Assembly (NCBI RefSeq): GCF_041321105.1
Contig: NZ_JBGGWD010000005.1
Coordinates: 8,544-72,543, forward strand
Length of the DNA: 64,000 nt
Reading direction: 5' to 3'
Origin: Fibrella musci
GTDB lineage: Bacteria; Bacteroidota; Bacteroidia; Cytophagales; Spirosomataceae
Part shown: in pieces, positions 1,443-55,887 of the stretch
Layout: the number at the start of each line of letters is the position of its first letter
Numbering within the stretch: the first letter of the stretch is position 1
Translations under genes and position numbers: made by a program
The notes under the pieces: model-generated
Seen by the model: the letters and a program-made list of their open reading frames with translations, nothing else
Database searches by the model: none
Told to the model about the DNA's origin: nothing

Positions 1443-3296
1443 CTAGAAAGGGACAGGTTTTGTGTCCGGTAGTAACCGGTGGGCATTGCTAAAGCGGTCC
1501 GCTGAATCCTGAACCAGTGGTCGATTACTCCAGACCGAGGGCGGCAGCACCTGATTGACGTCCATAGGCATTGTTATCTGATTACCTTGACGGCCTAACT
1601 CGGATTCATAAGCCAATCCCGGCTCCTGGTAGCGGCCCGTTGACACGTCAAAGCGAAACGTGGCTAGCCCCAGCTTGCCATTGTAAAATAACTTCACTTT
1701 TTGCACGTGTACGTCAGTAGTATTGTCTTCGTAGTTACGGTAAATGCAAAGACCATTATCCGTTTTGCTGAAGAAATTAGCCGAACCGGCGATAGTGTAG
1801 AGGTTAGGAACCGGATACTTGCCTTTTTCCTTGGTTAGCTTAGTGGGGTGAGCTACAAAAAATACATGCACACCGTGGGTCTTGGCGAAGCGCGTTAGCT
1901 TCTGCATTACCTCACTGACGTACTCCCCTTCGGTTTGGTGTTCGCCGCGTCGATGCTCGATGCAGTTATAAGGGCCGATGGCGAAGTACTCGATGCCCTT
2001 ACGCAGTACCAACTCGGTAGCTTTACCGATCAGGCCGTCAATGGTCAGATCCGCCGTCTGATTGTCAATGACGAACAGGTGCTTACTCAAAAACTTATAA
2101 GCCGCATCCTTCTGAGCTAAATTCATCTTCTGAGCCGGGTCTTTGTGAGTGAAGGGTAGCCCTACGTATTTCTGCGCGTATTTGATCTGAATCGTCGGCG
2201 CTTCTTCCTCGAAGTTGAATACCGCCGCCCTGGCGCCGTAGCGAGCCATCTTACGTACCAGCAATTGACCAATGAACTCGTCTTTACCATGGCCAGGGAT
2301 GCCCGTCACCATCGTCACCTCACCGGGGGCAATGTTCAGCAGTCGGTCGAACTCGTCATAGCCCACCGGTTGAGGGGCTGGCCAGCCATGTTCGTAGATG
2401 GCCTCCAGCTCCTCGAATGTATCTTCAAGGGTCATTACGTTCTCCAGCTTGGGAGCCACCGCATTCTTGTAAAGTGCCCGCACGGCCTCGGGCCCATACT
2501 TAAGCCACACCTCATTGGCATCTTTGCAACCTTCTGGATATTCAACCAGCCAACACCGATGCTTACCTAAGCGCCGGATCAGTTCCTGCTTGAGAAACTG
2601 TCCCGCTTCGTCACCATCGACGGCGATGGTGATCTTCTCCAAATGCACGAAGGCATCGGCACAGTTGTCGAGGTATTCTAGCTTAGCACTGCCCTTCGAG
2701 GCACCGTTTGGCACCGATACGGCCCCGTAGTAGCCCGATTGGTAGAAGGTCATACAGTCGATCTCACCTTCACAGATCAGGGCGTCGGTGCGGTCCCTGA
2801 GTGCGTCCAGGTTGTAGAAGATCAGTTCGGCATCCTTAGTCATCCGAAAGCACTTCAGCGCATCGCGGTATTTGATGTTGATCTTTTCGCGGTTGCGGAA
2901 ATAATTGAAGTTAATGCAGGTTCGTGTGCCGGCAGGCGTATCTCCCTTAGCTGGCATCCAGTCCTGCGACTCCGAGACGCGAAAATACTGTAACGTCTCG
3001 GGAGTGATGCCCCGCTGACCAAACCACTCGATCATCCGCTCGCCCATGGGTAATTCGGGCACCGTCGGTTTCTGGTACTGCTGTTGACGATGTAACTGTC
3101 GCTGATCTTCCTCGGGGCTGGTGACGTGCCCTTTCCAGCCACAGTGGTGGCAGTTGTATATGCCTTTAGGTAAGTTGACCGATAGCGACTTATCCGCCTT
3201 ATTGTGGCGTTGCTGACTACAGGCGGGGCATTTCACTTTCTGGTTGGTAGGGCCATGCAGGCGAACGGCGATACCCAGATCATTGTAAGTAGGCAT
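1443..3296 (-). CDS. Bifunctional DNA primase/helicase (CHC2 zinc finger, TOPRIM, P-loop NTPase), P4-alpha/phage-plasmid type
   Basis: CPACSQQRH...NCHHCGW zinc-binding motif, TOPRIM-like LICEGEIDCMTF, and P-loop-like VTGIPGHGKDEF in the C-terminal half. Confidence 0.75.
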   Translation of the reverse strand: MPTYNDLGIAVRLHGPTNQKVKCPACSQQRHNKADKSLSVNLPKGIYNCHHCGWKGHVTSPEEDQRQLHRQQQYQKPTVPELPMGERMIEWFGQRGITPETLQYFRVSESQDWMPAKGDTPAGTRTCINFNYFRNREKINIKYRDALKCFRMTKDAELIFYNLDALRDRTDALICEGEIDCMTFYQSGYYGAVSVPNGASKGSAKLEYLDNCADAFVHLEKITIAVDGDEAGQFLKQELIRRLGKHRCWLVEYPEGCKDANEVWLKYGPEAVRALYKNAVAPKLENVMTLEDTFEELEAIYEHGWPAPQPVGYDEFDRLLNIAPGEVTMVTGIPGHGKDEFIGQLLVRKMARYGARAAVFNFEEEAPTIQIKYAQKYVGLPFTHKDPAQKMNLAQKDAAYKFLSKHLFVIDNQTADLTIDGLIGKATELVLRKGIEYFAIGPYNCIEHRRGEHQTEGEYVSEVMQKLTRFAKTHGVHVFFVAHPTKLTKEKGKYPVPNLYTIAGSANFFSKTDNGLCIYRNYEDNTTDVHVQKVKLFYNGKLGLATFRFDVSTGRYQEPGLAYESELGRQGNQITMPMDVNQVLPPSVWSNRPLVQDSADRFSNAHRLLPDTKPVPF

Positions 3297-3302
3297 AGGA
3301 CG

Positions 3303-3809
3303 TTAGACGACAAACGTTCGTTGACCGATTGGCTTTAAGCCTGTCGTAGCCGAGGAGTATTCATTTTCAAACGCACGATCCCTCAACCAGCGTTCGGGAT
3401 CTTTGCGGTACTGCGCGTCGGGCTGATGAGCAAGGTAATCCGGCAGCACAACAGTGGCTTTGTGGCGGTCCTTCTGGCACAATTTGGTCCATTGCTGGAA
3501 CGCCTTCTTCTTATTGGCCGACCGTTTGTCGTATTGCTGCCAGAAGGCCTCAAACTCATCATTGTATCCGCCCTGTTGTTTCGAATCAGGCGTATTCGCC
3601 AGTTCGACAGAACCGGCAAGAGATGACACTCCAGTGTCTTTCCCTTTAGGAGATACGTTAGTATCTCTTTCCTTTTCCTTTTGTGTACTTTTCCAGTAGT
3701 ATTCCACTGGAAAACATTGGGATAACTTAGTTATAAGTCTTGACAGTGGGAATTCAGCCCCTGAGGCTAGTTCGATGAGGTTTATCTTACCGCTTGTGAG
3801 TCTTGTCAC
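3303..3809 (-). CDS. hypothetical protein (168 aa), first gene of the primase operon
   Basis: Co-directional with the primase gene and separated from it by 6 bp. Confidence 0.45.
   Translation of the reverse strand: MTRLTSGKINLIELASGAEFPLSRLITKLSQCFPVEYYWKSTQKEKERDTNVSPKGKDTGVSSLAGSVELANTPDSKQQGGYNDEFEAFWQQYDKRSANKKKAFQQWTKLCQKDRHKATVVLPDYLAHQPDAQYRKDPERWLRDRAFENEYSSATTGLKPIGQRTFVV
3689..3714. promoter_or_regulatory. Palindrome TTTTCCAGT-N8-ACTGGAAAA
   Basis: Perfect 9-bp inverted arms. Related to the TTTTCC..GGAAAA sites downstream. Confidence 0.45.
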
Positions 3810-3923
3810 AGACTATCTTTTTCAGTCTTTCAACGGCGCGTTCACTCTAAAAAGCTGCGTAAAAGCATTTGATAGTTTCGTGTTCCAGTGATTCGTCCCG
3901 CATATCCATAAGTTAGCGAGCAG

Positions 3924-3951
3924 TTTTCCGATGGAAAATACTTGGAATACC
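3924..3951. repeat. Iteron-like unit 1: palindrome TTTTCCGATGGAAAA followed by GGAATACC
   Basis: Exact 15-bp palindrome, repeated 103 bp downstream. Confidence 0.55.
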
Positions 3952-4026
3952 TCGCATCCCGGTAAAGGTCATCGCTTGATTGCATCAGCAGTTCAACAGC
4001 TTAGTTTTCCTCTGCTTATCCGAAGG

Positions 4027-4055
4027 TTTTCCGATGGAAAACGCCCGGAATACCC
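4027..4055. repeat. Iteron-like unit 2: palindrome TTTTCCGATGGAAAA followed by GGAATACC
   Basis: Identical 15-bp palindrome plus a GGAATACC tail. Lies in the noncoding leader upstream of the primase operon. Confidence 0.55.
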
Positions 4056-4333
4056 AAGCAGTGAACGCAGTTGCCTCTGCAACCTGCTTCTGGCTATGGC
4101 ATCCTGTGGATTTTCTGTGACAGAAACCCTCGTTTCCTCCCAGCTTCTGCGTCAGAAACTAGGCACAGGATGCCCTGCTCTTGATGCGTTAGCCAAGACG
4201 GTTACTCACACCGCAGCCCCACCTTCTAATAACTATTGGTTGGCCCGAAGCCCTCGAATGTTGTAAAAGCCGTTTAATTCCGTCCCAAATACGGGATAAC
4301 TATCCTAGGTTATTACCGGCTTGCATCGTCCTT

Positions 4334-5125
4334 TTGACGATTGAACTTCAACCTCCACACCTTATGGTACCAAGTCGCTTACTGTTGCTACTTGTGAATC
4401 TCGCCCTCATCAGCCTGGCCTGTGATAGAAAGAAGCAAGAGCCGTCTACGCCTGCCCCCAGCCAGCATCTCTGTACGATGATGGGCCAAATCGAGCCCGA
4501 TCAGACACTTACTGGTGAATCCACACTGCTATGGCCCAAAAAGCGGATCGAGGTCTACTTTATGGATGATGATGGGCAGGTTCGAGATCGGGTCTTGGCT
4601 ATCGCCAATGCCTGGAAGCCATTCTCCGGCGTTCAATTTGTTCGTTCGTTCGATCAGAGCACATCCGATATTCGGGTATCCTTTCGAACTGACGGATGGT
4701 GGTCCTACATCGGAACGATGTCAACTGAAGTAGGCAAAGACTCAGCGACCCTATCCCTAGATAGCCTGTACTTATACCCCCCTGATAAATTTAGAAGCAT
4801 CGTCTTACACGAGTTTGGTCACAGCCTAGGATTACTGCACGAACATCAGCATCCGTTTCTTGAGATCGACTGGGATCTGCCTGCTCTGTATAAATACTAC
4901 GAGGATGAATATGGTGTCGATACGACTTGGGTGAAGGAAAATGTAATCCACAAATACGAGAGTTTGACCGGCATTTATTGCGAACCGGATCTAAAGTCCA
5001 TCATGCTTTATAAGATCCCCCCTGGTCTAACAAAAAACGCCATTGTCGCACCGGAGCCTCTGGATTTATCCGTATTAGACAAAAAATACATCCGCATCAT
5101 CTATGCAGGTGGCACCTGTAATTAA
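4334..5125 (+). CDS. Astacin-like (M12A-type) zinc metalloprotease, lipoprotein
   Basis: HEFGHSLGLLHEH matches HExxHxxGxxHE, with a SIMLY Met-turn. N-terminal signal with LISLAC lipobox. Confidence 0.7.
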   Translation: MTIELQPPHLMVPSRLLLLLVNLALISLACDRKKQEPSTPAPSQHLCTMMGQIEPDQTLTGESTLLWPKKRIEVYFMDDDGQVRDRVLAIANAWKPFSGVQFVRSFDQSTSDIRVSFRTDGWWSYIGTMSTEVGKDSATLSLDSLYLYPPDKFRSIVLHEFGHSLGLLHEHQHPFLEIDWDLPALYKYYEDEYGVDTTWVKENVIHKYESLTGIYCEPDLKSIMLYKIPPGLTKNAIVAPEPLDLSVLDKKYIRIIYAGGTCN

Positions 5126-5142
5126 CCTAAATCGACTTAACC

Positions 5143-6705
5143 ATGAAACGTCTACTCTTCTTGGCCCTGCTTACAGCTTTATACAGCTGCAAATCATCAC
5201 AGGTTGGTAAAAGTAAAACTAGCAATAATGATCAATCGGGTACAATCCAAGAGGAAGCAGCGGCAAACGACCCATCACAGGTACAAACGAAGTCCCTAAT
5301 TGAAAATGCGCTGATAACCGTTGACTTTGCTTCACCTAAGTACCCGCCTGTTATCGCAATAAGACCCAAGCAGACGCTTGAGATCGAGCTAAAAAACCTC
5401 AATCCATATCTATATGAAGTTTCAGTAAAAGACTCCTTGCTGGTGTTTCAAACCGAGCAGCCGGCTCTATTTGGCCAAATCTTCAAGTTACCGGAGTTAG
5501 AAGCAACCCCTACCGAGACCCCACCCGCCAACGATAAAGTAGCTGGAAAAGCCCCAGATCCTAATTCTTCAGCCAAACGGGCAAAAGAGGATGAAGGTGC
5601 GCTGGAACAGGCTTTGAAGACGTTCCTGGCTGGCTATTCAGGAAAAGAGAACAACGCTAAAGACCTGCTTATTCTGTCCACGATTGCGGATGATATCGGC
5701 AAATTGCTCACCGATTGTTATTCAACCCTGGATGAACTGAAAACTACGGCCAGATCATACATCGTCAGTAAGATCCCGGAACTCGACGTGGCGTCTTTAC
5801 CGATTGGCGTGCAGACCGAGATTACCAACAAGTCGACGGCTTTACGGAATGACTTAGAACGGTATGTGGCGACCGGTACGGATCTTAAGAAGCGGTACCT
5901 TGCTATCTTAGAGCGAGCCGACGGGGATATGACGCTCACTCAATATAAGAGTATTGAAAAAGATGTCAAGGAAAAAATAGCCTTGATCGATAAAATTCTT
6001 GAGAACATAAAGAAGATCCAAGACAAGATAAAAGCATTTGATGAAGCGAATGTCGGCGCTACAATCGAAGAGAACTATAAGAAGATCGCTACGTCCCGCA
6101 CCAATAGAACTATCCTACGCCCCACCAATTACAGTACCGATGAGGTCAATGTCTTCATCCAGGTAAAGAAGAAGAAGGAGGTCTTTTGCAACCCGGAGAT
6201 TAATAGCTTCCCGGTCATCGCCCTTGTTAAGGGTGGGGTAAAAATCGATTTCAGTACAGGCGTCGTCTTCAACATGGGACGTCAGTACTTTTTCAACCAA
6301 AACTATTACTACGACTCTGTGAGACGGGGGGACGGTAAGATGGCGGATAGTGTTCGGATTACCCGTAATCGAAACAACAACATCTTAGTACCATCGATCG
6401 GGGCCTTTCTACATGTATACTCGCGCCTCAACTCACAAGTCAATATTGGCGGTATGGTCGGGGCCAGTTTAGGCGCTGATCAGCGAGCCTACATTCATGT
6501 TGGCGGCTGTTTACTGCTCGGCAAGTCGGATCGCCTGGTCATTGGTGGTGGGGTTTCGATTGCGAACGCCAAGACGTTGGACGGCCAGTATTCAGAAGGG
6601 CAAGTCATTAAACGATCCTTGGCACCGACCCAAATACCAAGGGAGGATGCCACCCGGGTTGGCGCCTTCGTCAGTCTTAGCTGGAACCTGAACCTGGTCA
6701 AATAA
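5143..6705 (+). CDS. Lipoprotein of unknown function (520 aa)
   Basis: Signal peptide with LYSC lipobox. Starts 18 bp downstream of the metzincin gene. Confidence 0.55.
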   Translation: MKRLLFLALLTALYSCKSSQVGKSKTSNNDQSGTIQEEAAANDPSQVQTKSLIENALITVDFASPKYPPVIAIRPKQTLEIELKNLNPYLYEVSVKDSLLVFQTEQPALFGQIFKLPELEATPTETPPANDKVAGKAPDPNSSAKRAKEDEGALEQALKTFLAGYSGKENNAKDLLILSTIADDIGKLLTDCYSTLDELKTTARSYIVSKIPELDVASLPIGVQTEITNKSTALRNDLERYVATGTDLKKRYLAILERADGDMTLTQYKSIEKDVKEKIALIDKILENIKKIQDKIKAFDEANVGATIEENYKKIATSRTNRTILRPTNYSTDEVNVFIQVKKKKEVFCNPEINSFPVIALVKGGVKIDFSTGVVFNMGRQYFFNQNYYYDSVRRGDGKMADSVRITRNRNNNILVPSIGAFLHVYSRLNSQVNIGGMVGASLGADQRAYIHVGGCLLLGKSDRLVIGGGVSIANAKTLDGQYSEGQVIKRSLAPTQIPREDATRVGAFVSLSWNLNLVK

Positions 6706-6846
6706 GTAGGATTGTATGATGTTGCGGGTAGCCAGACAGAACCGCTCAGAACGGGCAAGCATACGAAATGGTGAGTCTTCTTAACAATGGTATTTATATA
6801 CTACATTTGTTAATAGTGTTATTCACTACCACCATTCACTTTCTTC

Positions 6847-7236
6847 ATGTCTGCTTCGCCCTACTCAATGACCGATGCCATTGCCCTGATGGATGAATGC
6901 CAGCGCAACTTTATCGCCAACCAAGCCCTGCTGCTCGATCTGCAACAGACCGATTCGTTGTACGATCAGTTGCTGACCCTGCCCCTCGATGAACTGGGCC
7001 GAAGCCTCAACACAGCCACCCTCGACTCGCTGCAACGGTCGTATCGTAACGGCATGGACATCATTCAGACGCAGCATCGGATGTTGCAGGTACTGGACTC
7101 GGTTAGGATGAGTGATCAGATCCTGCTGGGCTTTGATCTCCGGGAGTCTGCCCGCACGATCATCCGCCTGGCGACCGATCTATGGGAAAAGCAGGCGATT
7201 CTCCTCGCTCGCTTTGGGCGATGTCACAGCCTGTAA
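6847..7236 (+). CDS. hypothetical protein (129 aa)
   Basis: ORF ending at a strong bidirectional terminator. Confidence 0.4.
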   Translation: MSASPYSMTDAIALMDECQRNFIANQALLLDLQQTDSLYDQLLTLPLDELGRSLNTATLDSLQRSYRNGMDIIQTQHRMLQVLDSVRMSDQILLGFDLRESARTIIRLATDLWEKQAILLARFGRCHSL

Positions 7237-7304: not shown

Positions 7305-10300
7305 TTAACTCCGACGGGACAGGTTCTGATAGTAACGAGTGATGCCATTGGGCCCAGCCTCTGACTCGGCAAAGCCGTTGCGGTCGATGTTAATGTTGAC
7401 CTGCTTCAACTGACGCAGTTGCTGACTCATCTGGTCCAACCGTTCTAAAAGCTGCTGATTCAGTTCCTGCTGCATGCTGACCGTTTCGGGGGCAACACCG
7501 GACGACAGTGCACTCGGCACCTGCATGGGGGGCAGGTAGATGTCCGTCCAGGGCCTGAGGATCGGCATGGTCAGTTGAGGCATCGACGGTGCCGGCAGCA
7601 GCAGGCGTTGTACCAGCTCGCGGTTAGTGACGTCGCCGTAGAGCCGACGGATGGCCGCGGACTCCTCGATGCTGAACACCCGTTCGCCTTTGGTGAGCCA
7701 CACTGGCACGGTATCGATCCCATCCGGATAGCGCGGGTCATCGACGTAATCCGTCCCCTTGGCGTATTTCTGACCCGTTTCCAGATCATAAGCGTCGGCG
7801 TAGTTAAAAAAGCCATTGACTGTTCTGCCCCCCGTATCAGTCGCGTAGCCGTCGATGGCTTCGGGCCGGTTGGCGTTGTAGAGCAGGTAGACCTTCCGTA
7901 CGCTCCCGTCAGGACGTTTGACGTAAATCTCACCCCGATAGCTCCCGTCACCCGTCCGCAGGCTATCGAGCACCGTGTTCATCTCCACCCAGTTCCCCCC
8001 ACTATCAAAGCCTGAACCCCGCACGGCGCCGTTGGCCGTGTAGGTACTGTTGCGATCAAACGACTTGCCACCTAACTCCCCGATGTAGGCGTTCAGTTCG
8101 TTAATCAGACCGCCGTTCCCGCCCCGCGCTTTCAATTTGGCGACCTCGATTTGCAGCTCAGTAATGGCCATATTTTTACGGGCATTGAACAGATTACGCT
8201 CCGCCTCGTAGGTTGCGTTGGCGTACTCGGTGTTGGCTAATCGACGTTGGTAGGCGGTGTTCACCTCATTATCCTTCAACTGGTTCTGGTACTTCAGAAT
8301 CGTTGCGGTCAGTTCGGCCTGAAGCGCTTCAATCTTGGTCTTGGTCTCCGTTTCCAGCGTCTTGATCCGGCTTTTCAGCTCCGTCTCTTTGGTTTCGTAG
8401 TCCGTGCGGTAGGTGTCGAGGGTTGTTTTAAGTTGGGTCTTCAGCGCCTCAGTTTCCTCCTTCTGGCGTTTTTCCAGTTCCAGTACCTTCTGAGTCTCCT
8501 CTTCCTTAAGTTTTTCGGTGAGGTCTTTCTCCTCCTCTTTAAGCTGCTTACTGACCAGTGTATTCGCCTTCGACTTGTCAAGCTTTGCATCCTCCACGTC
8601 TTTGTGGACCTGCTGAATCCGCTTCTCGTACTCATTAACGACGCGCGCCTTTTCGGCCTCATCGGTGAGGGTGGCGAGTATCCGATCACGCTGCGCAATC
8701 AGTTTATCAGTCTCTGTGGTGCGGTAGCGTTCGAGCGCCTCGTCACGCAGCCGGTCGATAATACCCGTGGCCTCCAACTCATCGGCCTTTGACTGTTCGA
8801 CCAACGATTTTCGATACTCATACGCATCACGCACCGCCTGTTTCTCGGCCTCATACCGGTCATTGATCTGTTGTAGGGCCCGGTCGTACTCCTCCTGGGC
8901 TAGATCACGCTTCTGATCGTAGGCATCCTTCAAGACCGCTAATTGGGCCTCGATGGCTTCCTTCTGTTTGTCCCGCTCCCCTTCGAGTAGCTCTTTCTGC
9001 TGCTCAAAGGCCTCTTTGGCTAAATCAATGGCTTTCTCGGTTCGGTCTTTCTCGGCTTCGTAGGCTTCTTCGATCTGCTTCAACCGCAATTCATGCACTT
9101 CCTTAAGCTCCGCCTTTTCCAACTCCAACTGTTCGATGCGCTCCCGCAGGCCCTTGGTTTGGTTGAAGCGACGCACCTCATCCAGCGTTTGCATGACCTT
9201 AGCCTCATCATCCATGTCTGAAGCCCTGATCTCGGCGATCTTCTGGATGAAGGCTAAATAATCATCCGTACGCCGTTGGTAGGCCGCTACTTCCTTCTCC
9301 TGCCGATAGAAGTTGCGCACCAGCTCAATCTGCTCATCATAGGTCCGTTCGGTCAGGGCAAGCTGCTCATCCAGATAATCCCGGTTTTGCTGACGGGAAG
9401 CCTTGTAGAACTCATCCAGAATGTCGCGGGTACGCCCGGCGGCTTCGGCGGTGGCCTGCCACTTGGCTCGTTCGGCCGCATTGAACATCTCGACCAGTTG
9501 GGTTACCAGTTGATAACCCATCGAAATCAGGCCCAACGTGGCCTGGGTCGAGGCGGTGGCGACTTGACTCACCGTTGCCTGATTGTCAGCCACGTTCTTC
9601 TTGGCCGCGGCCACGACCCCTTCCTGCGCCTTGATCTGCTGGGCATCGCCTGTTTTGTAGACCTCGAACAGCTTGGTCATCGCCCCCTCGTAAACCGATG
9701 TAGCGCCCTGTAAGTTGGCTTTGGCGACCTCTAGGGACTTACCCGACAGGGCATCCCAATCCGCGAACGTCTTCTTAGCTAGCCCGGCAATCGACCCCAT
9801 AAGCCCTGACTGCTGGGCCACCAGATCCACCACCAGGCCGAACACCTGTTTACGGCCTTCGATCTCATCGGCCATGTTCTTTTTCTTGATCTGGGCCGTT
9901 TCACGCTCGGCCTGCTCGATCTCCTGCTGCAACTCCCGGATGTCCTTTTTCCGCTCGGCGTTGGCCTCCTTTTCGGCTTTGAGTCGGGCCTGTTCCTGCT
10001 GCTTGCGGTCTTTGGTGGTCCACACCTGCAGGGCCGCAATGGCTTCCGCCGCTTCTTTTTCGATGCCCTGTTCCTGTTCCACCACATCCATCAGCACGTC
10101 GAGCTGATCCGCCCGTAGTTGGGCCCGCTTCTGTTCGTACTTCTCATGGATGGCAATCAACTGGGCCTTCACCGCCTCCTCAAATTGCTTTTCAACACCG
10201 AACGCGGCCTTCTTGGATACAATGCGTTTATTGGCCGCATCCATCTCAGCCCGCTCCTGCGCGGCCATCGCGGCCAGTTGCTGCTCATACGACCGGGCAA

Positions 10301-12866
10301 AATGACCTTTCATGAACGCTTCCCGGTCATGGGCGGCAAACACCTCAATCTCTTTGACTTTATCCGCTTCTGCTGTGGCCGTCGCGATGCGGGTCGTACT
10401 ACCCGTATCCTGCAACCGACTGAGGTTTTCTTCGTGGCGTTTTTTCTCGGCCAGCAGTTCAGCGCTCGAGCCTTTAGCGGCTTCCATGGCGTTCTGGTGG
10501 CGCGTCATCTCCGCATCCAGCATCGACTTGGTTTCCCCCTGACGCATCAGGTCGCGCCGTTGGGTGGATTCAAGGTTTTGCTTTTCCACCTCGCTGATGT
10601 TTTTCACCACGGTGCGCAGCGCCACAGTGGCCCCGCTGCCCATACCATGCCACAGGTCGTCCCACTGAGCGCGCATCCCGCCATTGAATTGCTTGGTGTA
10701 CTGGCTCGACTCATCCAGCGCTTTCAGTAGTTTGGCCGGATCCCCGTTGATCTGAATCAGCAACTCTTTGGGCAGTCGCTGCGCCGCCAGTTGCATGATT
10801 TCCTGTTCGGTTTTGTGCAACTCCCGTAGCCGGTCCCCATTGACTTCGACCCGGTAGGTTTCCCGCGCCAGCGCGATGCGATCCTGATACGATCGGTTCA
10901 CCTGCTTGAGCATCCTGTCAAGATCACCGTTGGACGTCTTCTCCGAGTTGATGCCGGCGAAGTATTCAGGGTATTTATTCACCAGATACTGAATCGCCAT
11001 GGCCCGCTCGACGGTGCCTTGCTTGGCTTGTTTGGCCAGCTCGACACTCTGGGTAATCAACCCGAGTTCCGTGCGGAGTTTGGTCTCCTGTTCGCCCACC
11101 GCATCGGTTACCTCGGTGGTGACCGCATCCCAGGCGGACATCGCTACCGTAATCGCCGTAACGGCCGTCAGTAAGGCCCCGATTGGATTGGCGACCACAA
11201 CGGCCCACAAAGAACGCCCCGCCACCGCCGAACGCACCTGAGCGGCGGTAAAGCCTTCGGTCGTACCGGCCATCGAAATCAGCGTCAGGTTGTAGGTGCC
11301 ACCAATGGCCACCGATGCCGCCCGGGTTACGTTGGCCGCCACCTCGGCAATCCTGGCCCGGTTAACGATAACCTCATACCCTGTCCAGGCGACAACGGCG
11401 GTACGTACCCACTTGGCCGTTCGGTCAATGGCCGAGTCGGATCCGGCCAGCACGTCGATCAAGTCACTCGTCCCGCCAATGACCTTTTGTAAACCATGCT
11501 GAACATAATCCCCCAGCCTCGCTTTGGCGAAAAAGAACTTGTCAGCCAGGTTAGACACCTGCCCGGCCATCGTTTCGGCCTGCATCTCCATCATGCGGTA
11601 GTAGCGGCCCCCTTCCGATGTGGCGTCTTGCAGGGCCTTCTTGACGTGGGCAAAACTGATCTCATGGGCTTCAGCCATCTTCACGACCTGATCGCGGGTT
11701 TTACCCATCGAAACGGCGAGCAAATCGTAAAGGGGTACGTTATTTTCGACCATTTGGTTAGTCTCAGCCTTGAAAAGGCGACCCTTGCTCATGATGTCGG
11801 TGTAGGCTTTGGCGACCAATGGCAGCTTTTCAGTACCCGCTACAGCGGCGATATCGCCCAGCATCTTGACCGTCGGAATCAACTCGGCCGTCGCTACCCC
11901 CATGGCTTTGAGGCGTCCGGTCACCGTCATTAGATCCTCCACCTGAAACGGGGTCGAAACGGCCAGCTTGGTCAACTCGATCATCAGTTGATCCGCCTGT
12001 TGTTTACTGCCCAACATCTGGGTCAGCCCCCCGGCGAAAATATCGACCTTCCCTTTGGCCTCGATTACCCCTTTCCCAAAGTCAAGGATCTCCTGCACCC
12101 CGAAAGCGGCCATAATCAGCGTACGGAGTTCACCATACACCTCCCGGTAGGCGCTGGGCTGACTGCGGATCAATTGGTTTTGCTGACCGATCTCCTGTCG
12201 TAACAGCGCGGTTTGGCGTAGCTGCTCCTGTCGAACGATGGCCGTCTGCTGATCCGCTTCCGCCTTGCGACCGATGGTCTGCTGTTGCAGTTCGGCGAGC
12301 AGCGCGGCCGTCTGCTGGTTGAGGTTATGCTTCTGGTCGGCCAGCTCCTGCGCCCGTAGCGCCTCGGCCTGCCGGGCCTGCTCCTTCAGGGCGGCATCAT
12401 ACTCAGCAGCCTGCCGGTTTAGCGCAGCCTTCAACTCGGTCAGTTCGGCGGCGTGATGAGCCTTCAAATCGGCTTCCTGTTTACGAAGCTCGGCCTCGCG
12501 TTCGGCCGTTAGCTCCTTGGCGAGTTCAGCCGCTAGCACCAGCCGTTCTTTTTCCGCGGTTTTGTAAGCAGTTGTCAAGCGATCTTCTGATTCTTTGAGT
12601 TGAATCAGTTGTCGATCCAGGGCGGCCTGCTTCTCGATGGTTTCCTGCCTGGCAACTTCTTTGGTGACGGCCAGTTGTTCGGCCGCCGCCGCCTTAGCCA
12701 GCGTGATCCCCTGCTGATAGGTTTGCTGGAGGGCACTGGCAGCTTTCTGGGCCACGGGTCCCTGCTCAGCTACCAATTGTTTAATGGCCTGAAGCTGCTC
12801 AATGGCTGAGGGTAATTCGGAGGCAACTGCGAATCGAAAGCGAATCGTCTGGTCGCGGTTTGACAT
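7305..12866 (-). CDS. Tape-measure-like giant coiled-coil protein (1853 aa)
   Basis: Residues ~230-560 resemble the phage tail tape-measure core, with long charged coiled-coil stretches. The ~300-aa C-terminal region is Gly/Asp/Tyr-rich and unassigned. Confidence 0.6.
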   Translation of the reverse strand: MSNRDQTIRFRFAVASELPSAIEQLQAIKQLVAEQGPVAQKAASALQQTYQQGITLAKAAAAEQLAVTKEVARQETIEKQAALDRQLIQLKESEDRLTTAYKTAEKERLVLAAELAKELTAEREAELRKQEADLKAHHAAELTELKAALNRQAAEYDAALKEQARQAEALRAQELADQKHNLNQQTAALLAELQQQTIGRKAEADQQTAIVRQEQLRQTALLRQEIGQQNQLIRSQPSAYREVYGELRTLIMAAFGVQEILDFGKGVIEAKGKVDIFAGGLTQMLGSKQQADQLMIELTKLAVSTPFQVEDLMTVTGRLKAMGVATAELIPTVKMLGDIAAVAGTEKLPLVAKAYTDIMSKGRLFKAETNQMVENNVPLYDLLAVSMGKTRDQVVKMAEAHEISFAHVKKALQDATSEGGRYYRMMEMQAETMAGQVSNLADKFFFAKARLGDYVQHGLQKVIGGTSDLIDVLAGSDSAIDRTAKWVRTAVVAWTGYEVIVNRARIAEVAANVTRAASVAIGGTYNLTLISMAGTTEGFTAAQVRSAVAGRSLWAVVVANPIGALLTAVTAITVAMSAWDAVTTEVTDAVGEQETKLRTELGLITQSVELAKQAKQGTVERAMAIQYLVNKYPEYFAGINSEKTSNGDLDRMLKQVNRSYQDRIALARETYRVEVNGDRLRELHKTEQEIMQLAAQRLPKELLIQINGDPAKLLKALDESSQYTKQFNGGMRAQWDDLWHGMGSGATVALRTVVKNISEVEKQNLESTQRRDLMRQGETKSMLDAEMTRHQNAMEAAKGSSAELLAEKKRHEENLSRLQDTGSTTRIATATAEADKVKEIEVFAAHDREAFMKGHFARSYEQQLAAMAAQERAEMDAANKRIVSKKAAFGVEKQFEEAVKAQLIAIHEKYEQKRAQLRADQLDVLMDVVEQEQGIEKEAAEAIAALQVWTTKDRKQQEQARLKAEKEANAERKKDIRELQQEIEQAERETAQIKKKNMADEIEGRKQVFGLVVDLVAQQSGLMGSIAGLAKKTFADWDALSGKSLEVAKANLQGATSVYEGAMTKLFEVYKTGDAQQIKAQEGVVAAAKKNVADNQATVSQVATASTQATLGLISMGYQLVTQLVEMFNAAERAKWQATAEAAGRTRDILDEFYKASRQQNRDYLDEQLALTERTYDEQIELVRNFYRQEKEVAAYQRRTDDYLAFIQKIAEIRASDMDDEAKVMQTLDEVRRFNQTKGLRERIEQLELEKAELKEVHELRLKQIEEAYEAEKDRTEKAIDLAKEAFEQQKELLEGERDKQKEAIEAQLAVLKDAYDQKRDLAQEEYDRALQQINDRYEAEKQAVRDAYEYRKSLVEQSKADELEATGIIDRLRDEALERYRTTETDKLIAQRDRILATLTDEAEKARVVNEYEKRIQQVHKDVEDAKLDKSKANTLVSKQLKEEEKDLTEKLKEEETQKVLELEKRQKEETEALKTQLKTTLDTYRTDYETKETELKSRIKTLETETKTKIEALQAELTATILKYQNQLKDNEVNTAYQRRLANTEYANATYEAERNLFNARKNMAITELQIEVAKLKARGGNGGLINELNAYIGELGGKSFDRNSTYTANGAVRGSGFDSGGNWVEMNTVLDSLRTGDGSYRGEIYVKRPDGSVRKVYLLYNANRPEAIDGYATDTGGRTVNGFFNYADAYDLETGQKYAKGTDYVDDPRYPDGIDTVPVWLTKGERVFSIEESAAIRRLYGDVTNRELVQRLLLPAPSMPQLTMPILRPWTDIYLPPMQVPSALSSGVAPETVSMQQELNQQLLERLDQMSQQLRQLKQVNINIDRNGFAESEAGPNGITRYYQNLSRRS

Positions 12867-13016
12867 AAATGAGGTCGTGAGATGGTGAGACCGAATTTAA
12901 CCTATTTGTTAATAACAATATTAACTTTCTAACTAATAATAATATTAACAAATACCTATTAATATATATGTCGACAATAAGGTTGAATAGGCGAAACGCA
13001 TTTGCAGTTATAGTCA

Positions 13017-14270
13017 ATGAAAAAAAATATATTAGCAATCAAATTTTACATTTGTACAACTACAAGAGGTTATAACATGCTAGAGAGTATCTGTATCAAA
13101 AGTGGACCAAATGATAATAGAATTGACTTTGGATTTTTATGTGAGTCAATTCTATTCTACGGAAAAGTAAGAGTAATTGTAGACTATAGGCGATTAAGAT
13201 ACTTATTCGACAGAATGAGTATCAGAGGGCTTGAGAGACTTATAAAACAAGGCAGAATCGAGGTTTTTATCGCAGAAAAGCATTTAGGTGCAATGACTTT
13301 TGGCGAAAACAAAAGCGATAAAAGATATGCGTTTGAAAGTATTCAAGGTGTAAATGATAATTACATAACAGAGTTGTATAAGGCTTTTGAACTTACCACA
13401 AAAGATATCAGAAAAAGTATCAAATTGACTAATGAATTCTGCGAAATTGTTAATCCTTTTAACTACTCGTCCTCATTGATTGAGTCTCTCAATGAAGATC
13501 TTGATAACAGAGAATATATAATTAACACTATGCATAGCTACATCAGTAGCAATTATCCGGAAGTAAGTATATCACCTTTTGACATCAATATAAATTTTAC
13601 TGTACACCCAGGTGAAGATGTCAAAAAAATGGCGGGATTTTCTAAAGAAAGTATTAGTGTTGAATCTAATTTACCAATAGACAAATTCCTCGAGTTAGAT
13701 CGCCGTCGAGGGTATGCAGGAACAGATTTTTACAGCGGTTATTTTCTGTCCCTATTAGAAACTGCCGGAGATATAGATACTGCAGCCCAATATTCGAGTG
13801 AAATAGCAACTAGAGAAATTTATTCAAATATGATTCGGTTCAAAGTTGAATCTTTATATATGAAGAATAAAAAAAGCACACAAGAGCTAGATGCTTTTAA
13901 TGAATATGTGATTAAAAATTGTCATTCTGTAGCTCAAGCCATTAATAGCTATAAGTTAAGTTTCTCAAAATTCATGAAAATTTTAGATACATCGGACAGA
14001 TTTAAAGGATGGTTAACTGAAAGTAATGATGATATTGGGTTAGTGGCAGAATATTACAAAGCCCTTAGTACAGACAACAGTATGTTTAGCAGCTTTCCAT
14101 TAAAACATATGAAGTTCATTTTTTTTGCGGCTGCAGGATTCTTTTTGACACCGATTCAAGGTATTGCATTAGGTGGGCTAGATTCCTTCTTCGTTGATAA
14201 GATAAAAAACGGCTGGAAACCCAATCAATTTGTTGACAATCAATTAAAGCCTAGTTTGCCGAAGAAATAA
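13017..14270 (+). CDS. Novel AT-rich cargo protein (417 aa) with a C-terminal hydrophobic segment
   Basis: Codon usage is very AT-rich compared with the flanks. No known motif. The tail FIFFAAAGFFLTPIQGIALGGLDSFFV is TM-like. An alternative start lies at M20. Confidence 0.5.
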   Translation: MKKNILAIKFYICTTTRGYNMLESICIKSGPNDNRIDFGFLCESILFYGKVRVIVDYRRLRYLFDRMSIRGLERLIKQGRIEVFIAEKHLGAMTFGENKSDKRYAFESIQGVNDNYITELYKAFELTTKDIRKSIKLTNEFCEIVNPFNYSSSLIESLNEDLDNREYIINTMHSYISSNYPEVSISPFDININFTVHPGEDVKKMAGFSKESISVESNLPIDKFLELDRRRGYAGTDFYSGYFLSLLETAGDIDTAAQYSSEIATREIYSNMIRFKVESLYMKNKKSTQELDAFNEYVIKNCHSVAQAINSYKLSFSKFMKILDTSDRFKGWLTESNDDIGLVAEYYKALSTDNSMFSSFPLKHMKFIFFAAAGFFLTPIQGIALGGLDSFFVDKIKNGWKPNQFVDNQLKPSLPKK

Positions 14271-14457
14271 AACAGTCTATGCCCAATTACCTTTACTTAT
14301 TTATTGATCCGTGAATAATTCTGTAAAGTAATCTACTGGTGGGCATAGGCAAATCATTCACAAACACATGAATAGCCAAGATTGACTTTACGAACTTATT
14401 CACGAGTCAACACCATTTTTTTATTTCCACTTTATTTATATCAATTGACATAATACT

Positions 14458-15537
14458 CTATATACCATTGAGAGAATTATTTATTTTCTCTTCTTGTTGG
14501 CCATCCCAAATATCATGTGATGAGCTATTTTCATCTCGTGAAATTGATAATAGGTTTTCCAAGTCTTTTGCACGAGTATATTGTTTATATTTGTCGTTTG
14601 GGGAAAAACGCAAGCTATAAAAATTAAATCGTAAAGCATATTTACTAAATTTTGTTATTGAGGCTTTGCCACCAAATGCTAGCATTAATTTTATTGTTTT
14701 ATCTGACAATTCGATTAAATCTGAGTTATTCACAAAAAGGCGAAATTGCTTCTTAAGCGGAAAGCCATTAGTGATTATACTACCTTGTTTCTGAAAATTA
14801 ACGCCTTTGTTATCATTTGTAAAATTGAGGCCAGTATCTTTTGCAATATTCTCAAATTCACCCAACGATGTAGTCAAGTTAATGTATATATCGCTGTCAT
14901 TTTCTCTGATACTACTGTTGAATATAGATGCTTCTAAAAGAATCTCTATCAATAGACTTTCATGCTGATCATGCATCTGGTATTGGACTACGCGTAAATA
15001 GCCTAATAATTCGGGTCGTCTAGTTTGTCTGAATAATGCCTCTACCACATAATGTGGTGCACCGATGCTCTGCCCATCCAGCCGTATTGGATATTCCTTT
15101 TTAAACTGATGAGGTTTGCTCTTACTTTCTTGTACCTCAATTAAATATACAAAATATCCATCGGTGAAATTAACAGCCGCTACTCTTATACCAACAGGCA
15201 TGTATGATATAGCTCCATGAATAAGATTGACTAATGCATCTTTTGTTTTAAGTGTAGTTGGAATAGGTGTGAGTTCACCCTTTACGACTCTGTATTTATC
15301 ATGTACTGCTACTTCAGATGGGGCACCAAATATCAATAATCCCCCTTCTGAGTTCAAGAAGGCAGTGATCGTGCGTAGAACACCATCAAAGTTAAAACCG
15401 CCATTTTTATCGGCAACAAAGCTCTTAAATTCCAAAGTGAGCGACTCTTCACGTGCCTGTGAGAAGTAATCAATCAGATCCTGACTGGTAATTTCTTCAT
15501 TCAATGATTTGCCAATATGGATTTCTGCAAATGACAT
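14458..15537 (-). CDS. AlbA_2 (Schlafen-like putative DNA-binding) domain protein with an unknown ~230-aa C-terminal domain
   Basis: N-terminal LTLEFKSF...GGLLIFG pattern typical of AlbA_2. AT-rich coding sequence. Confidence 0.55.
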   Translation of the reverse strand: MSFAEIHIGKSLNEEITSQDLIDYFSQAREESLTLEFKSFVADKNGGFNFDGVLRTITAFLNSEGGLLIFGAPSEVAVHDKYRVVKGELTPIPTTLKTKDALVNLIHGAISYMPVGIRVAAVNFTDGYFVYLIEVQESKSKPHQFKKEYPIRLDGQSIGAPHYVVEALFRQTRRPELLGYLRVVQYQMHDQHESLLIEILLEASIFNSSIRENDSDIYINLTTSLGEFENIAKDTGLNFTNDNKGVNFQKQGSIITNGFPLKKQFRLFVNNSDLIELSDKTIKLMLAFGGKASITKFSKYALRFNFYSLRFSPNDKYKQYTRAKDLENLLSISRDENSSSHDIWDGQQEEKINNSLNGI

Positions 15538-15569
15538 GGTTATATAATTTAATGTTTTTTGATAATTTG

Positions 15570-16937
15570 TTAGAGCAACGAGTCAAACGCAGCATCGACG
15601 GCACCTGACCCAAATGAATCTAGATAAATATTTGTCGTTGTCTCGTCTTTATGGCCCAGCGCCTGACCAATTACGGCGCTGGCATGACCAGCTCGCTTTA
15701 GATTAGTGGCAAATGAGTGCCTGGCTACATAAGTAGTCAATGGTGTTGCTAGGCCAATCGAGTCACTGATTGTCTTTAGATCCGTGTTTACTTGTCCCAG
15801 CACCTTGTGCAGCCGGTTCTTTACCTTATCGGCTGTTGAGTGGCTGGCTTTGTTCAGAATCGGAAAAATAAACGCATCCGGTCCGGTGTACGTCTCCCTT
15901 CGATATCGTTCAATTATGGACACAGCAGGAGCTATCAGCTTCAGCGAGAAATTACCGCCTGTCTTTTGCCGAACGTAGCTGATCCGGTAATTATCCTCTC
16001 CGGCTCGTTGTACGTCTTGCCAACGCAGTTGCGCCAGATCGACAAAGTTGATGCCGGCCACGAAGTAAGAGAACAAAAATACGTCCTTGGCCAGTTGCAT
16101 TCGCTCAGATTCCCGGCTTAGGCTGGCGTACTTGCCCGTTGGTCTAGCCGGCACTTCGTATTCTTCGACTTTGCGGATATCCTCCCGACTGACGGCCCGT
16201 TTCCTAGTCGAGGTATCGAATTTGCCGACACTAAATTTGCTTCGCTCCGCTACATTGCGGGCAAAGGGGTATTTGTCAGGCTTCATGGCCCCGTCAGCAA
16301 TGGCCCGGTTGAGCACCGTGCGCAAAACTCGAAACCGCTGGGACATGGTGTTCTCTGTATTACTTCGCTGCCGCAGGTAGGCCTCGAACTGGTTGCAAAA
16401 GGAAAGGTTCACCTGTTCAAAAGAGACGTCTGTGACTTGCTTTTGCTCGGTCAGAAACGAAGCCAGTTGTTTTTGTACATCGAGGTAGGTATCTGCCGTT
16501 CCATTGCGATGGGTAGCTCTGAGTGATTCGACCGTCTCTGTAAAGAAAGCTAGCAGTGTAGTGCGACGCGCCTGCTGCCTGCCTTCAATGGCTTTACTAA
16601 TAACCGCTGTTACATCGTGTCGCTCATCCGACTCAGTCAGCATAGCCGCTGCCTGGCTATATTTGTTTTCCCATTCGGCCAGTTTCTCGATCAGTTGAGT
16701 CCTGAATGGGGATGGATAGTTTTTTCGTATAGCCTCCCGATAGTTTGAGTGCTGGGCGTTCCAGTATTTGGGGTGCATAGTCAACCCAGTAGCAACATAT
16801 TTGGTCTTCCGGTCCTTCGTCACACGAAGCCAGAAAGGACACAGTCCTTCCTTATCCGCTTTATCCAGTCGGTACACGATCCGCACGGTGGCGCGGCCCT
16901 CTTTATGGCTGGTGGTACGTGGCATTTGATTTACCAA
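15570..16937 (-). CDS. int: Tyrosine site-specific integrase
   Basis: C-terminal catalytic region ARHSFATNLKRAGHASAVIGQALGHKDETTTNIYLD carries the R..H..R..Y signature. Confidence 0.85.
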   Translation of the reverse strand: MVNQMPRTTSHKEGRATVRIVYRLDKADKEGLCPFWLRVTKDRKTKYVATGLTMHPKYWNAQHSNYREAIRKNYPSPFRTQLIEKLAEWENKYSQAAAMLTESDERHDVTAVISKAIEGRQQARRTTLLAFFTETVESLRATHRNGTADTYLDVQKQLASFLTEQKQVTDVSFEQVNLSFCNQFEAYLRQRSNTENTMSQRFRVLRTVLNRAIADGAMKPDKYPFARNVAERSKFSVGKFDTSTRKRAVSREDIRKVEEYEVPARPTGKYASLSRESERMQLAKDVFLFSYFVAGINFVDLAQLRWQDVQRAGEDNYRISYVRQKTGGNFSLKLIAPAVSIIERYRRETYTGPDAFIFPILNKASHSTADKVKNRLHKVLGQVNTDLKTISDSIGLATPLTTYVARHSFATNLKRAGHASAVIGQALGHKDETTTNIYLDSFGSGAVDAAFDSLL

Positions 16938-53754: not shown

Positions 53755-54202
53755 ACAACCGATTTAGTATTAAGAAAACGGAACTTCAGTGAGAGCATTT
53801 ATTCTTTCGCTGAGCCGGGGATAGATACACCTTTTCATTGCTTATTATGTTTGCAAAACGCTCCAGGGGGCTGATGGAGGCCACGACTTAGCCCAAACCA
53901 CCTCAACGCCTTCGCTACCTTTTCACAATCAGTTTTGTTGCGCCCTCCAATGTAGCTTTCCTCATGTGATTCTTGTCTACCACTACGTGGACAGCAGAGC
54001 TAATCGACGACGCACGGCATCTGCTTGGGGTACGTTCCTAACCAAAACGACGGGCGTTTTGTGCCGTTGCGAGCGCAAAGCTAGGTACGTTGCTGGCCCA
54101 TGTTTGGCTTGTCGGCGGGCCGTTGAAACCACCGCTACCTCGTACAATACAGAATAGTTGTATGATAAAAAAACGTGTCTTTCGTCAACGACCAAATGTA
54201 AC

Positions 54203-54709
54203 CTAAACTCTTGTGCATGAAAATTTGATGTTCAACTGTTTTATGAAATCGAAATCATTAATCCATTTAATATCAAGATTATCGCACACATTTGGGATTT
54301 TAATCTTCGTTGAATTTGCGGCTGTAACTTTCTCTTCTTTTGTAACCACGATAGCCTGCTCATTCATAGCATGAGCAATCACCCAAGGATCAGCAAGAGA
54401 CCTACCTTTTTTATTATCAACTAGTTGTTGATGCAATGGATTTGAGCTGTAAATTGATCTAAGGCAAGTTATTACAGACGAATTTGTTTTTCGAACAGGT
54501 ATTCGGCTTGTTTTCAGCCATTCAGAAAGGTCATCCTCTGTATTTACTATCTCGTCAAAAACCTGTTCAGCAATAAAAATTCGACCGCTACTACCCAAGC
54601 TTATTAATATATCCCAATATCCGGGACAAAACGTTGGTGAGTAATATTTTTGCCATGCTTCAATGAGTACATTAGCATCCAAGCAATAACTTTCTCCTGA
54701 TGTACTCAT
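54203..54709 (-). CDS. DUF4411 family PIN-like protein, the putative toxin/effector of the module
   Basis: CLDANVLIEAW N-terminus, ADPWVIAHA and KIPNVCD motifs. AT-rich. Confidence 0.6.
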   Translation of the reverse strand: MSTSGESYCLDANVLIEAWQKYYSPTFCPGYWDILISLGSSGRIFIAEQVFDEIVNTEDDLSEWLKTSRIPVRKTNSSVITCLRSIYSSNPLHQQLVDNKKGRSLADPWVIAHAMNEQAIVVTKEEKVTAANSTKIKIPNVCDNLDIKWINDFDFIKQLNIKFSCTRV

Positions 54710-55887
54710 TTGTATAGTTGTGCTTCTAATTTTTGGAATTTGTTAACGTGAACATTGAGCAAACTGCTAGCCAAAGTGGGTTCAATCCGACCTCCACGAA
54801 AGGCATCAAGAACTGTTTGAGTGAACAGTCTGCTATTCCTGTTTAGCTGAAGAAGGTAATAGTCAGGTCCTCCACTACTATTCTTTTGTCTAGCTTTTCT
54901 TTCCTCCTCACGCTTGATAAACTCCTTAAAAGCTGTATCAGCTTGTGTTCTAAGCTTTGAGTAGGTGGGTGCAGAAATAATGCTAAGATTTAAAGCTCTA
55001 ACAATCATAGCTACTGAACTTACTCCTAGCGACCTCGAAGCTTGAAAAACATTGTTATAGTCTTGTAATTTTTGAGGGCCAATACTTTGAAGTATCTCTT
55101 TTGGCATCAAGGCGTTAGCGGCTACCTCGTTACAGAAAAGCTCAACCGGATGAAACTTATCTCTGTCTTTCTGAACAATATCTATTGCATTCGATACACC
55201 AGTTGCTGCAATCCAGATGTGGGCTAACTCATGAACAAAAGTAAAAAGTTGCGGTGCGTTCCAATCATCAGAATTAATAAAAACGAATGGAGCAAAAGGA
55301 TCAGCAATAGCAAATCCCTGTAACTCATCTGAATCTAATTTAAGCCTAGAATGTATGAAACTAGTTCTAGAAACAAATACGCCATTAACCTCAGCAGAAC
55401 CAATCCACTCTTTAATGGGATTGTTAGTTTTGTAGCTGCTTGGATTAATTTTTAGAGTTTCAAGAATGTCTTTTGCAACTTTTGCAGGGTCGGAGTTTAA
55501 TGTAAAGCGTCCGACAAAAGGTAATTTGGCGTCGCCATTTTCAGCATGTAGATCACTCAACCAAGCTTGCTTTTGTTGTATCTCCCGAATTATAAAAACA
55601 GATGATGTAGTTAGTGGTTTAGAGCCTGGCTTCCTAAAATCTTGTAATGGCTGGAAATCCCTAGGTATGTCAGGTAGAAAAAATAAAGCAAATGGCCTCT
55701 TGTAGTGCTTTGCTAATTCTTGGGCTTGCCTAATTGTGGGCTGATCTACGCCATCTTCCCATGATTGCAGTTTTTCAACAGACACGGAGATTTTAGCAGC
55801 AGCAATTTCTTCGGACATACGTGCCGATTCTCTTGCCCATTTTAGTATAATAGGTGTTATAAAAGCTTCGTCAGCCATCGCTAGCAA
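54706..55887 (-). CDS. XRE-type HTH fused to an ImmA/IrrE (COG2856) zinc metallopeptidase
   Basis: N-terminal HTH-like segment. HELAHIW (HExxH) in the C-terminal half. Overlaps the DUF4411 gene by 4 bp. Confidence 0.7.
   Translation of the reverse strand: MLAMADEAFITPIILKWARESARMSEEIAAAKISVSVEKLQSWEDGVDQPTIRQAQELAKHYKRPFALFFLPDIPRDFQPLQDFRKPGSKPLTTSSVFIIREIQQKQAWLSDLHAENGDAKLPFVGRFTLNSDPAKVAKDILETLKINPSSYKTNNPIKEWIGSAEVNGVFVSRTSFIHSRLKLDSDELQGFAIADPFAPFVFINSDDWNAPQLFTFVHELAHIWIAATGVSNAIDIVQKDRDKFHPVELFCNEVAANALMPKEILQSIGPQKLQDYNNVFQASRSLGVSSVAMIVRALNLSIISAPTYSKLRTQADTAFKEFIKREEERKARQKNSSGGPDYYLLQLNRNSRLFTQTVLDAFRGGRIEPTLASSLLNVHVNKFQKLEAQLYK

Follow-up and report, generated by a model that had tools for sequence, protein, structure and literature searches.

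Three repeat arrays in a prophage remnant of Fibrella musci as the probable iterons of an orphan phage origin within a broken initiator gene

In this study, we analyzed a 64,000-nt stretch of the genome of Fibrella musci / Fibrella sp. WM1 (Cytophagales), referred to below as the window, with a focus on three arrays of short inverted repeats beside its leftward phage replication genes (Table 1). The opening 17 kb of the window looks like prophage-like material. Proteins of strain WM1 are exact matches of the window proteins neighbouring the primase-helicase, which is itself 100% identical to P0151 of that strain. The primase-helicase gene begins 7 bp downstream of an open reading frame (ORF) of 168 residues, and the repeats lie within and upstream of that ORF.

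Two of the arrays contain exact copies of the 15-mer TTTTCCGATGGAAAA, at 3924-3938 and 4027-4041 (103 bp from start to start), each followed by N5 and then by GGAATACC. An earlier note on this DNA had described this as a perfect palindrome occurring twice; the two copies, their spacing and the trailing GGAATACC were all confirmed, but the palindrome is not perfect, its reverse complement being TTTTCCATCGGAAAA and its 6-bp arms (TTTTCC and GGAAAA) flanking an asymmetric GAT. The third, related palindrome reported there, TTTTCCAGT-N8-ACTGGAAAA, is indeed present at 3689-3714, 210 bp before the first TTTTCCGATGGAAAA copy, but it is no separate kind of palindrome, as its - strand reading, TTTTCC-AGT-GGAATA-CTACT-GGAAAA, follows the same three-part plan as the TTTTCCGATGGAAAA sites. 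When a weight matrix built on this plan was scanned across both strands of the window, scores of 18-30 bits were obtained on both strands at centres 3707, 3931 and 4034, versus a best score of 15 elsewhere, and each site is therefore a roughly symmetric half-site array of ~41 bp, with hexamers phased at 11 bp around a TTTTCC-N3-GGAAAA core (3-bp spacer). If a half-site is defined as TTWTCC/TWTTCC or the complements (GGAAWA/GGATAA) and counted on either strand, 13 fall within the 380 bp from 3673 to 4052, compared to 1.6 per kb window-wide, and 11 of the 12 half-sites of the arrays are intact. A motif search for further copies, as the earlier note had proposed, found no other TTTTCCGATGGAAAA in the 64 kb even with two mismatches allowed (0.16 expected), so the motif is not frequent in the window.

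The 29-mers of sites 1 and 2 are identical at 25 positions, and all four differences are within the 5-nt spacer, for which the chance under an even scatter is C(5,4)/C(29,4) = 2e-4 by our calculation. A diverged 103-bp tandem duplication was considered and rejected, since the 103-bp units have no similarity beyond the 29-mers and are thus not a faded duplication. The three sites fall in different reading frames, and the motif persists in the window without an open frame. Other inverted pairs of 8-9-mers in this region (3804/4114 and 3838/4060) are, by our estimate, at the level expected by chance for 800 bp. DnaA boxes (TTATCCACA, or relaxed TTWTNCACA) were also rejected, as only the TTWTCC half is shared and the CACA half is absent from TTTTCCGAT and TTTTCCAGT, as were iterons of the plasmid type, as the arrays are dyad-symmetric, are 103 and 224 bp apart, and lie inside a gene in relatives.

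The gene into which the repeats extend is the remains of a replication initiator. The 168-residue ORF is without a methionine codon (no ATG), and NCBI calls a protein of 134 residues from a GTG at 3707. Residues 60-154 of the ORF match phrog_270, phrog_9327 and phrog_1701, which correspond to the C-terminal part of phage replication initiation proteins/helicase loaders. An exhaustive search returned 2199 relatives, mostly of 200-300 residues with the domain at the C-terminus, although stand-alone versions of the C-domain also exist among them. The closest full-length relative, P0002 (269 residues, from locus L167), is 53% identical over its residues 144-269 to residues 40-168 of the ORF, and its N-terminus is Lin1244_N (PF14297, formerly DUF4373). 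This match is with the C-terminal part only, and hence the ORF is the back half of an initiator whose presumed DNA-binding front half is missing. The primase-helicase is the partner of that C-domain.

Traces of the front half were sought with profile A1, built from four N-domains of the type found in the relatives that carry the window's motif (type A), using hmmsearch against six-frame translations. The profile detected a remnant on the - strand (Table 1), and tblastn with the initiator of locus L171 detected the same N-domain trace with E = 0.002. Profile positions 1-54 were found nowhere in the window, no Pfam signal for Lin1244_N was found in any - strand frame, neither Pfam nor tblastn identified an intact or frameshifted Lin1244_N domain upstream of the ORF, and there is no type-A N-domain ORF in the 64 kb. 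A profile search of a large protein database missed a known Spirosoma type-A protein and is therefore uninformative on whether Fibrella has a second copy. The initiator gene of the window is a pseudogene, and in the window the proposed origin is without its cognate initiator.

These findings change the picture of the supposed noncoding leader of ~520 bp in which the earlier note had placed all of the repeats. Site 3 is inside the 168-residue ORF as drawn, with its central ACT (3706-3708) overlapping the GTG (3707-3705) that is the NCBI start of the 134-residue protein, and the N-domain trace at ~3667-3945 indicates that the leader is largely the wreck of the 5' part of the initiator gene. The suspicion that a 111-residue + strand ORF (3931..4266) is spurious was borne out: it has no Pfam or PHROG match, its exact sequence is absent from the protein collection, the NCBI annotation goes from ACAW74_16415 directly to the M12 peptidase gene with no locus tag in between, and we judge it to be a spurious frame running across the decayed - strand gene. 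In addition, the replication module is a decaying mosaic, as its C-domain and primase-helicase resemble those of L167, whereas its repeats and linker resemble those of L130, L172 and L177.

A comparison with intact relatives was needed to place the repeats. The first primase-helicase relatives that we collected from genome and viral collections (L001-L127) were at most 45% identical and were without the 168-residue protein, making them useless for alignment of the leader. Exact look-ups of the window primase and of P0001 returned no contig on record. An exact-motif scan of viral contigs had no matches, and a relaxed scan had mostly single chance matches, with the exception of L130, which has two copies 212 bp apart. 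Closer relatives were found in L167, with the gene order integrase, HTH_17, VRR_NUC-like, initiator and primase-helicase, whose 617-residue primase-helicase has 76% amino-acid identity to that of the window, and in L169 (a Spirosoma migulaei prophage) and L171, whose primase-helicases are 62-65% identical to it. The L167 initiator gene contains four copies of a different repeat, TCTGTGACAGAAA, one at codon ~70 and three spaced by 21 bp at codons ~126-144. The initiator genes of L169 and L171 have the window's own motif twice, 212 bp apart (for example, GTTTTCCGTTGGAAAACACTTGGAAAA), and the same two in-gene copies at the same spacing were found in L130, L172, L176 and L177. No other match above 15 bits was present in the 3-18 kb of these six loci. 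L176 carries the exact window 15-mer at both in-gene places, as well as one extra 11-bp half-site unit.

The two copies have fixed positions in all six relatives. Iteron 1 is in the N-domain at codons ~56-65, where it is translated as VFRWKTLGK, and iteron 2 is in the linker at codons ~127-136, where it is translated as EFSxGK. The latter is directly followed by GTACACAAAAGGAAAAGGAAAAG (the purine tract GTACACAAAAGGAAAAGG, GTACACAAAAGG) and a short palindrome. This in-gene location at the boundary of N-domain and linker was found in all six intact relatives, and site 3 of the window is at the homologous place in the remnant gene, as the counterpart of iteron 2. Site 1 matches iteron 1 of L177 at 24 of 26 positions and that of L169 at 23 of 27, and site 2 matches iteron 1 of L171 at 26 of 29. 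The helicase or loader that accompanies the motif varies among relatives (primase-helicase, DnaB or AAA+ loader), and the motif lies 2-3 kb from the integrase and the host junction.

The purine tract has also been retained in the window beside site 3, with 83-91% identity to relatives over 55-80 nt. On the - strand, 3715-3639 (site 3 and its flank) is 82.5% identical to L130 over 80 nt, the site and flank are 83% identical to L177 over 65 nt, and in L172 the match is limited to the outer half-site and the tract (3694-3640), at 91% over 55 nt. Around the conserved tract, nothing is alignable at the DNA level. When compared with L172 and L177, one extra base is present within 3661-3672 of the window, GGAAAG(A)GATAC, and because of it the C-domain and the iteron-2 reading are not in the same frame. 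The tract also differs in frame between relatives, being read as YTKGKGK in L130, L171 and L172 and as STQKEKE in L176. The A+T content is 64% over 3650-3749, in a genome of ~56% GC. The palindrome GAGATAC-GTTA-GTATCTC at 3650-3667 corresponds to the conserved palindrome that follows the tract in relatives (GATAC-TAAC-GTATC in L177), and a further palindrome, GACAC-TCCA-GTGTC at 3625-3638, is, like it, in the linker-coding part of the ORF.

A putative second kind of origin repeat is present further upstream. Palindromes of the form TTCTG-N3-CAGAA occur three times in the window versus 0.07 expected, and those at 4113 and 4145 equal the in-gene origin repeat TCTGTGACAGAAA of L167. They are enclosed by an 11-bp inverted repeat (GGCATCCTGTG / CACAGGATGCC) at 4098-4108 / 4164-4174, and the segment 4098-4174 folds unusually well on the - strand (z = -5.3).

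Codon usage in the relatives demonstrated that in the iterons it is the DNA rather than the peptide that is conserved. In six type-A genes, 63 columns have an identical degenerate amino acid in all genes, and a single codon was kept in nine of them. All four columns of the iteron-1 half-sites are among those nine (V57 GTT, F58 TTC, K61 AAA and K65 AAA; P = 2e-4), whereas the spacer codons R59 (CGN), T62 (ACN) and L63 (CTN) each have three to four different codons.

More distant DUF4373 genes have different palindromes at the same two in-gene positions, in clusters 210-250 bp apart. GTTAATG-N4-5-CATTAAC is found in Bacillus phage Pavlov, Listeria phage B054 and Enterococcus phage phiFL1A, a palindrome of the GTTAATG-N-CATTAAC type (GTTAATGTAGACATTAA) in gut-metagenome contigs, and AATGCGAATGCATTGC in a Flavihumibacter contig (L001). 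Except in the Flavihumibacter contig, where there is only a purine tract further downstream, (G)TACACA(A/G)AG and an A/G-rich tract come after the last repeat. Four N-domain subfamilies thus have four different palindromes at the same positions, indicating that the repeat changes with the N-domain while the tract stays. Every DUF4373/Lin1244_N gene that we examined (L201 Pavlov, L202 B054, L203 phiFL1A, L181/L186/L188, L001 and L167) has a subfamily-specific in-gene palindrome, with two clusters ~210-250 bp apart in most of them. In-gene palindromes followed by a tract therefore look like a general origin signature of the DUF4373/Lin1244_N family that can be predicted from sequence. A search of the available literature found no description of this family-wide pattern and no paper mapping the origins of Pavlov, B054 or phiFL1A.

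Based on these comparisons, we consider that the three arrays are probably the iterons of a lambda-O-style phage origin located inside its initiator gene, and that in the window this origin is most likely an orphan, a reading to which we assign a probability of roughly 0.78. The arrangement had been proposed earlier to be either an origin or a set of operators, and it is the former that the comparative evidence backs. The proposed binder of the iterons is the winged-helix N-domain Lin1244_N/DUF4373. Initiator dimers would occupy the TTTTCC-N3-GGAAAA core, further subunits would bind the half-sites phased at 11 bp on the same face of the helix, and the two iteron clusters would cooperate, with DNA opening at or next to the purine tract. 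Recruitment or loading of the helicase, which here would be the primase-helicase, would then fall to the variable C-terminal domain. The binders suggested in the earlier note, the 168-residue protein and the primase N-terminus, do not fit, as the former is the helicase-side C-domain only and the repeats co-vary with the missing Lin1244_N N-domain. The orphan origin is most likely silent, and would not be expected to fire, unless an initiator of the same (type-A) specificity is supplied in trans.

Several observations weigh against this interpretation. The origin assignment draws on architecture, co-variation and analogy. Fold comparison yielded weak matches (Foldseek E >= 0.035). The relatives have their two copies 212 bp apart, whereas the window sites are spaced by 224, 103 and 327 bp, and the strongest third half-site of sites 1 and 2 (GGAATA) points away from the ORF, opposite to the relatives, suggesting that the region was rearranged and did not simply decay. 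The score of the N-domain trace is only 17 bits, part of which comes from iteron-encoded peptides. The 11 of 12 half-sites that are intact amid ruined coding sequence mean that the DNA sites could still be in use. Finally, the absence of the initiator covers the 64 kb only, and a cognate initiator is possible elsewhere in the genome.

The last two points bear on two alternatives, each of which we regard as unlikely. In the first, the arrays are a still working origin, fired by the 134/168-residue C-domain protein, by the primase-helicase in the manner of P4 alpha, or by a type-A initiator encoded elsewhere in the genome. This would explain why the whole origin core, as well as the half-sites, is intact while the N-domain coding is ruined, and why sites 1 and 2 differ in their spacer only; in addition, the primase-helicase and the C-domain ORF are open, and stand-alone versions of the C-domain exist. 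However, it is the N-domain with which the repeat co-varies, as opposed to the C-domain or the helicase, the motif accompanies three kinds of helicase or loader in different relatives, the 64 kb contain no type-A N-domain ORF, and there is decay nearby in the form of a DnaB fragment. In the second, the orphan origin has been kept since it is useful, either as an initiator decoy against incoming phages of the same specificity or as a cis handle for over-replication. In the latter version, a superinfecting or co-resident type-A phage would over-replicate the defective island and its neighbours in situ, including the M12 peptidase operon and the Schlafen-like gene. Near-perfect half-sites in ruined coding sequence and the spacer-only differences between sites 1 and 2 are what would be expected under selection for a retained origin.

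It is less probable still that a repressor uses the arrays as operators, possibly with looping between sites, to control the leftward replication genes, the rightward M12-peptidase operon, or both. Three dyad-symmetric sites in a divergent intergenic region, spacings of 103 and 327 bp that are near integral helical turns, and the overlap of site 3 with the annotated start codon are all features that operators might have, but in the six relatives the motif is at fixed codon positions inside coding sequence and not in promoter regions. In addition, a scan found no sigma-70-type promoter, a home-made TTG/TAnnTTTG scan found no full Bacteroidota-type -7/-33 promoter (only -7 elements with one mismatch, with no - strand candidates), and there is no adjacent repressor or nearby helix-turn-helix gene. 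More doubtful again is a reading without any role for the DNA, in which a repeated peptide (VFRWK / FSxGK) or a local duplication gave rise to the repeats. The motif is translated in relatives and sites 1 and 2 share most of their bases, but third codon positions are frozen in the half-sites only, the adjoining tract is conserved though read in different frames, the three sites of the window lie in different frames and persist without an open one, and the 103-bp units are dissimilar outside the 29-mers. Least probable of all are arm-type or accessory sites for an integrase/excisionase at the junction of two tandem prophage remnants. The integrase has an arm-binding domain, and the gene order is suggestive of a rearrangement or of two remnants, but 11.5 kb separate the motif from the integrase gene, and relatives have it within the initiator gene, at a distance of 2-3 kb from both the integrase and the host junction.

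Table 1. Positions of the repeat arrays, the replication genes and their remnants, and other features of the window.
Feature	Position	Strand	Content or basis
Site 3	3687..3727, centre 3707	-	TTTTCC 3689, TATTCC 3700; GGAAAA 3709, GGATAA 3720
Site 1	3911..3951, centre 3931	+	(TTAGCG 3913, weak), TTTTCC 3924; GGAAAA 3933, GGAATA 3944
Site 2	4005..4054, centre 4034	+	TTTTCC 4005, TTATCC 4016, TTTTCC 4027; GGAAAA 4036, GGAATA 4047
Putative conserved origin core beside iteron 2	3639..3688	-	GTACACAAAAGGAAAAGGAAAG (3688-3667), then palindrome GAGATAC-TAAC-GTATCTC (3667-3650)
Type-A initiator N-domain trace	3667..3945	-	Profile positions 55-143, 17.3 bits, one frame, 5 in-frame stops
Putative second kind of origin repeat	4098..4174		Palindromes TTCTGTGACAGAA (4113-4125) and TTCTGCGTCAGAA (4145-4157)
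168-residue ORF	3303-3809	-	Initiator linker and C-terminal domain
Primase-helicase, 617 residues	1443-3296	-	Toprim and DnaB_C
Three genes, M12 lipoprotein peptidase first	4364-7236	+	
Tape-measure-like protein (TMP_3), 1853 residues	7305-12866	-	
Low-GC insert including a Schlafen/AlbA_2 gene	13000-15500		Gene content
Tyrosine integrase	15570-16937	-	Gene content

The DNA around the arrays has further signs of a disrupted prophage. Downstream of the primase-helicase, an ORF of 88 residues (375-641, - strand) is a C-terminal fragment of a DnaB-type replicative helicase (Pfam DnaB_C), and an alignment over 650-417 is 40% identical to residues 370-445 of the L130 DnaB. This is the second indication of a replication module that is mosaic and decaying. 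The gene order in the intact relatives L169 and L171 is integrase, HTH_17, initiator, primase-helicase and, further on, terminase/tape measure, whereas in the window the integrase and the TMP_3 gene are upstream of the replication genes with three opposite-strand genes between them. This altered order of 7305-16937 suggests two remnants or a rearranged prophage. The first of the three opposite-strand genes encodes an M12 (astacin-like) metallopeptidase with a lipoprotein signal (...SLAC), the ORFs of 520 and 129 residues that follow it have no family match, and the GC content of 4364-7236 is under that of the host; this peptidase operon may be prophage cargo. The insert at 13000-15540 that adjoins the integrase has a GC content of 0.32, encodes a 417-residue ORF of unknown function and a 359-residue Schlafen/AlbA_2 protein, and has the look of a small cargo of the defence type. 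Another stretch of low GC content (0.37-0.43, versus a background of ~0.57) is present at 54000-58000. A scan of 3200-4700 against Rfam found no credible match, and the cultured-phage collection had no DNA match for window positions 3600-4200.

For the annotation of this locus, our results would turn an unexplained "regulatory" repeat into a defined lambda-style in-gene origin that is stranded in a broken prophage. They also illustrate that gene callers can start genes (the 134-residue protein) or draw ORFs (111 residues) across such relics. The wider pattern, in which two subfamily-specific palindrome clusters ~210-250 bp apart are followed by the invariant GTACACAAAG purine tract, would make origins predictable from sequence alone in many DUF4373/Lin1244_N phages of Bacteroidota and Firmicutes, and the matched pairs of initiator and site are offered for testing of specificity.

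Among known replication systems, two have arrangements that were not seen here. In P4 ori/crr, the binder is the primase-helicase itself, and plasmid iterons (RepA/pi/TrfA) are tandem direct repeats of 17-22 bp outside the rep gene, with copy control by handcuffing. Precedents for the decoy role are PER and lambda iteron inhibition, in which replication of incoming phages with the same initiator can be impaired by a fragment of the origin on its own (PMC6356513, PMC3349717). However, PER in Streptococcus/Lactococcus phages and iteron-dependent inhibition of lambda involve multicopy plasmids or amplifying elements, whereas here there is a single chromosomal copy.

The DUF4373/Lin1244_N initiators Pavlov gp38, B054 gp52 and phiFL1A gp18 are closer counterparts, as they belong to the same N-domain family and their genes have two in-gene palindrome clusters followed by (G)TACACAAAG and a purine tract. 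They differ in having the repeat GTTAATG-N4-5-CATTAAC rather than TTTTCC-N3-GGAAAA, and their N-domain identity is at most 40%. The closest parallel in architecture is ori-lambda, since lambdoid phages have an origin comprised of iterons and an AT-rich tract in the middle of gene O (PMC7466680). In both cases the proposed or known origin is in the initiator gene, at the junction of a DNA-binding N-domain and a helicase-recruiting C-domain, with a tract rich in A/T or purines after several initiator sites of dyad symmetry; in both, the repeat and the N-domain change together between phages (PMC7466680 for lambda). There are also clear differences. The initiator here is Lin1244_N/DUF4373, which is unrelated in sequence to lambda O and has no Pfam match to it (Phage_rep_O), there are two clusters ~210-250 bp apart instead of four or six adjacent 19-mers, the half-sites are of 6 bp and phased at 11 bp, and the gene in the window is dead. 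The architecture of an origin within its initiator gene is thus already known, and this locus is probably a further case of it on an unrelated family of initiators.

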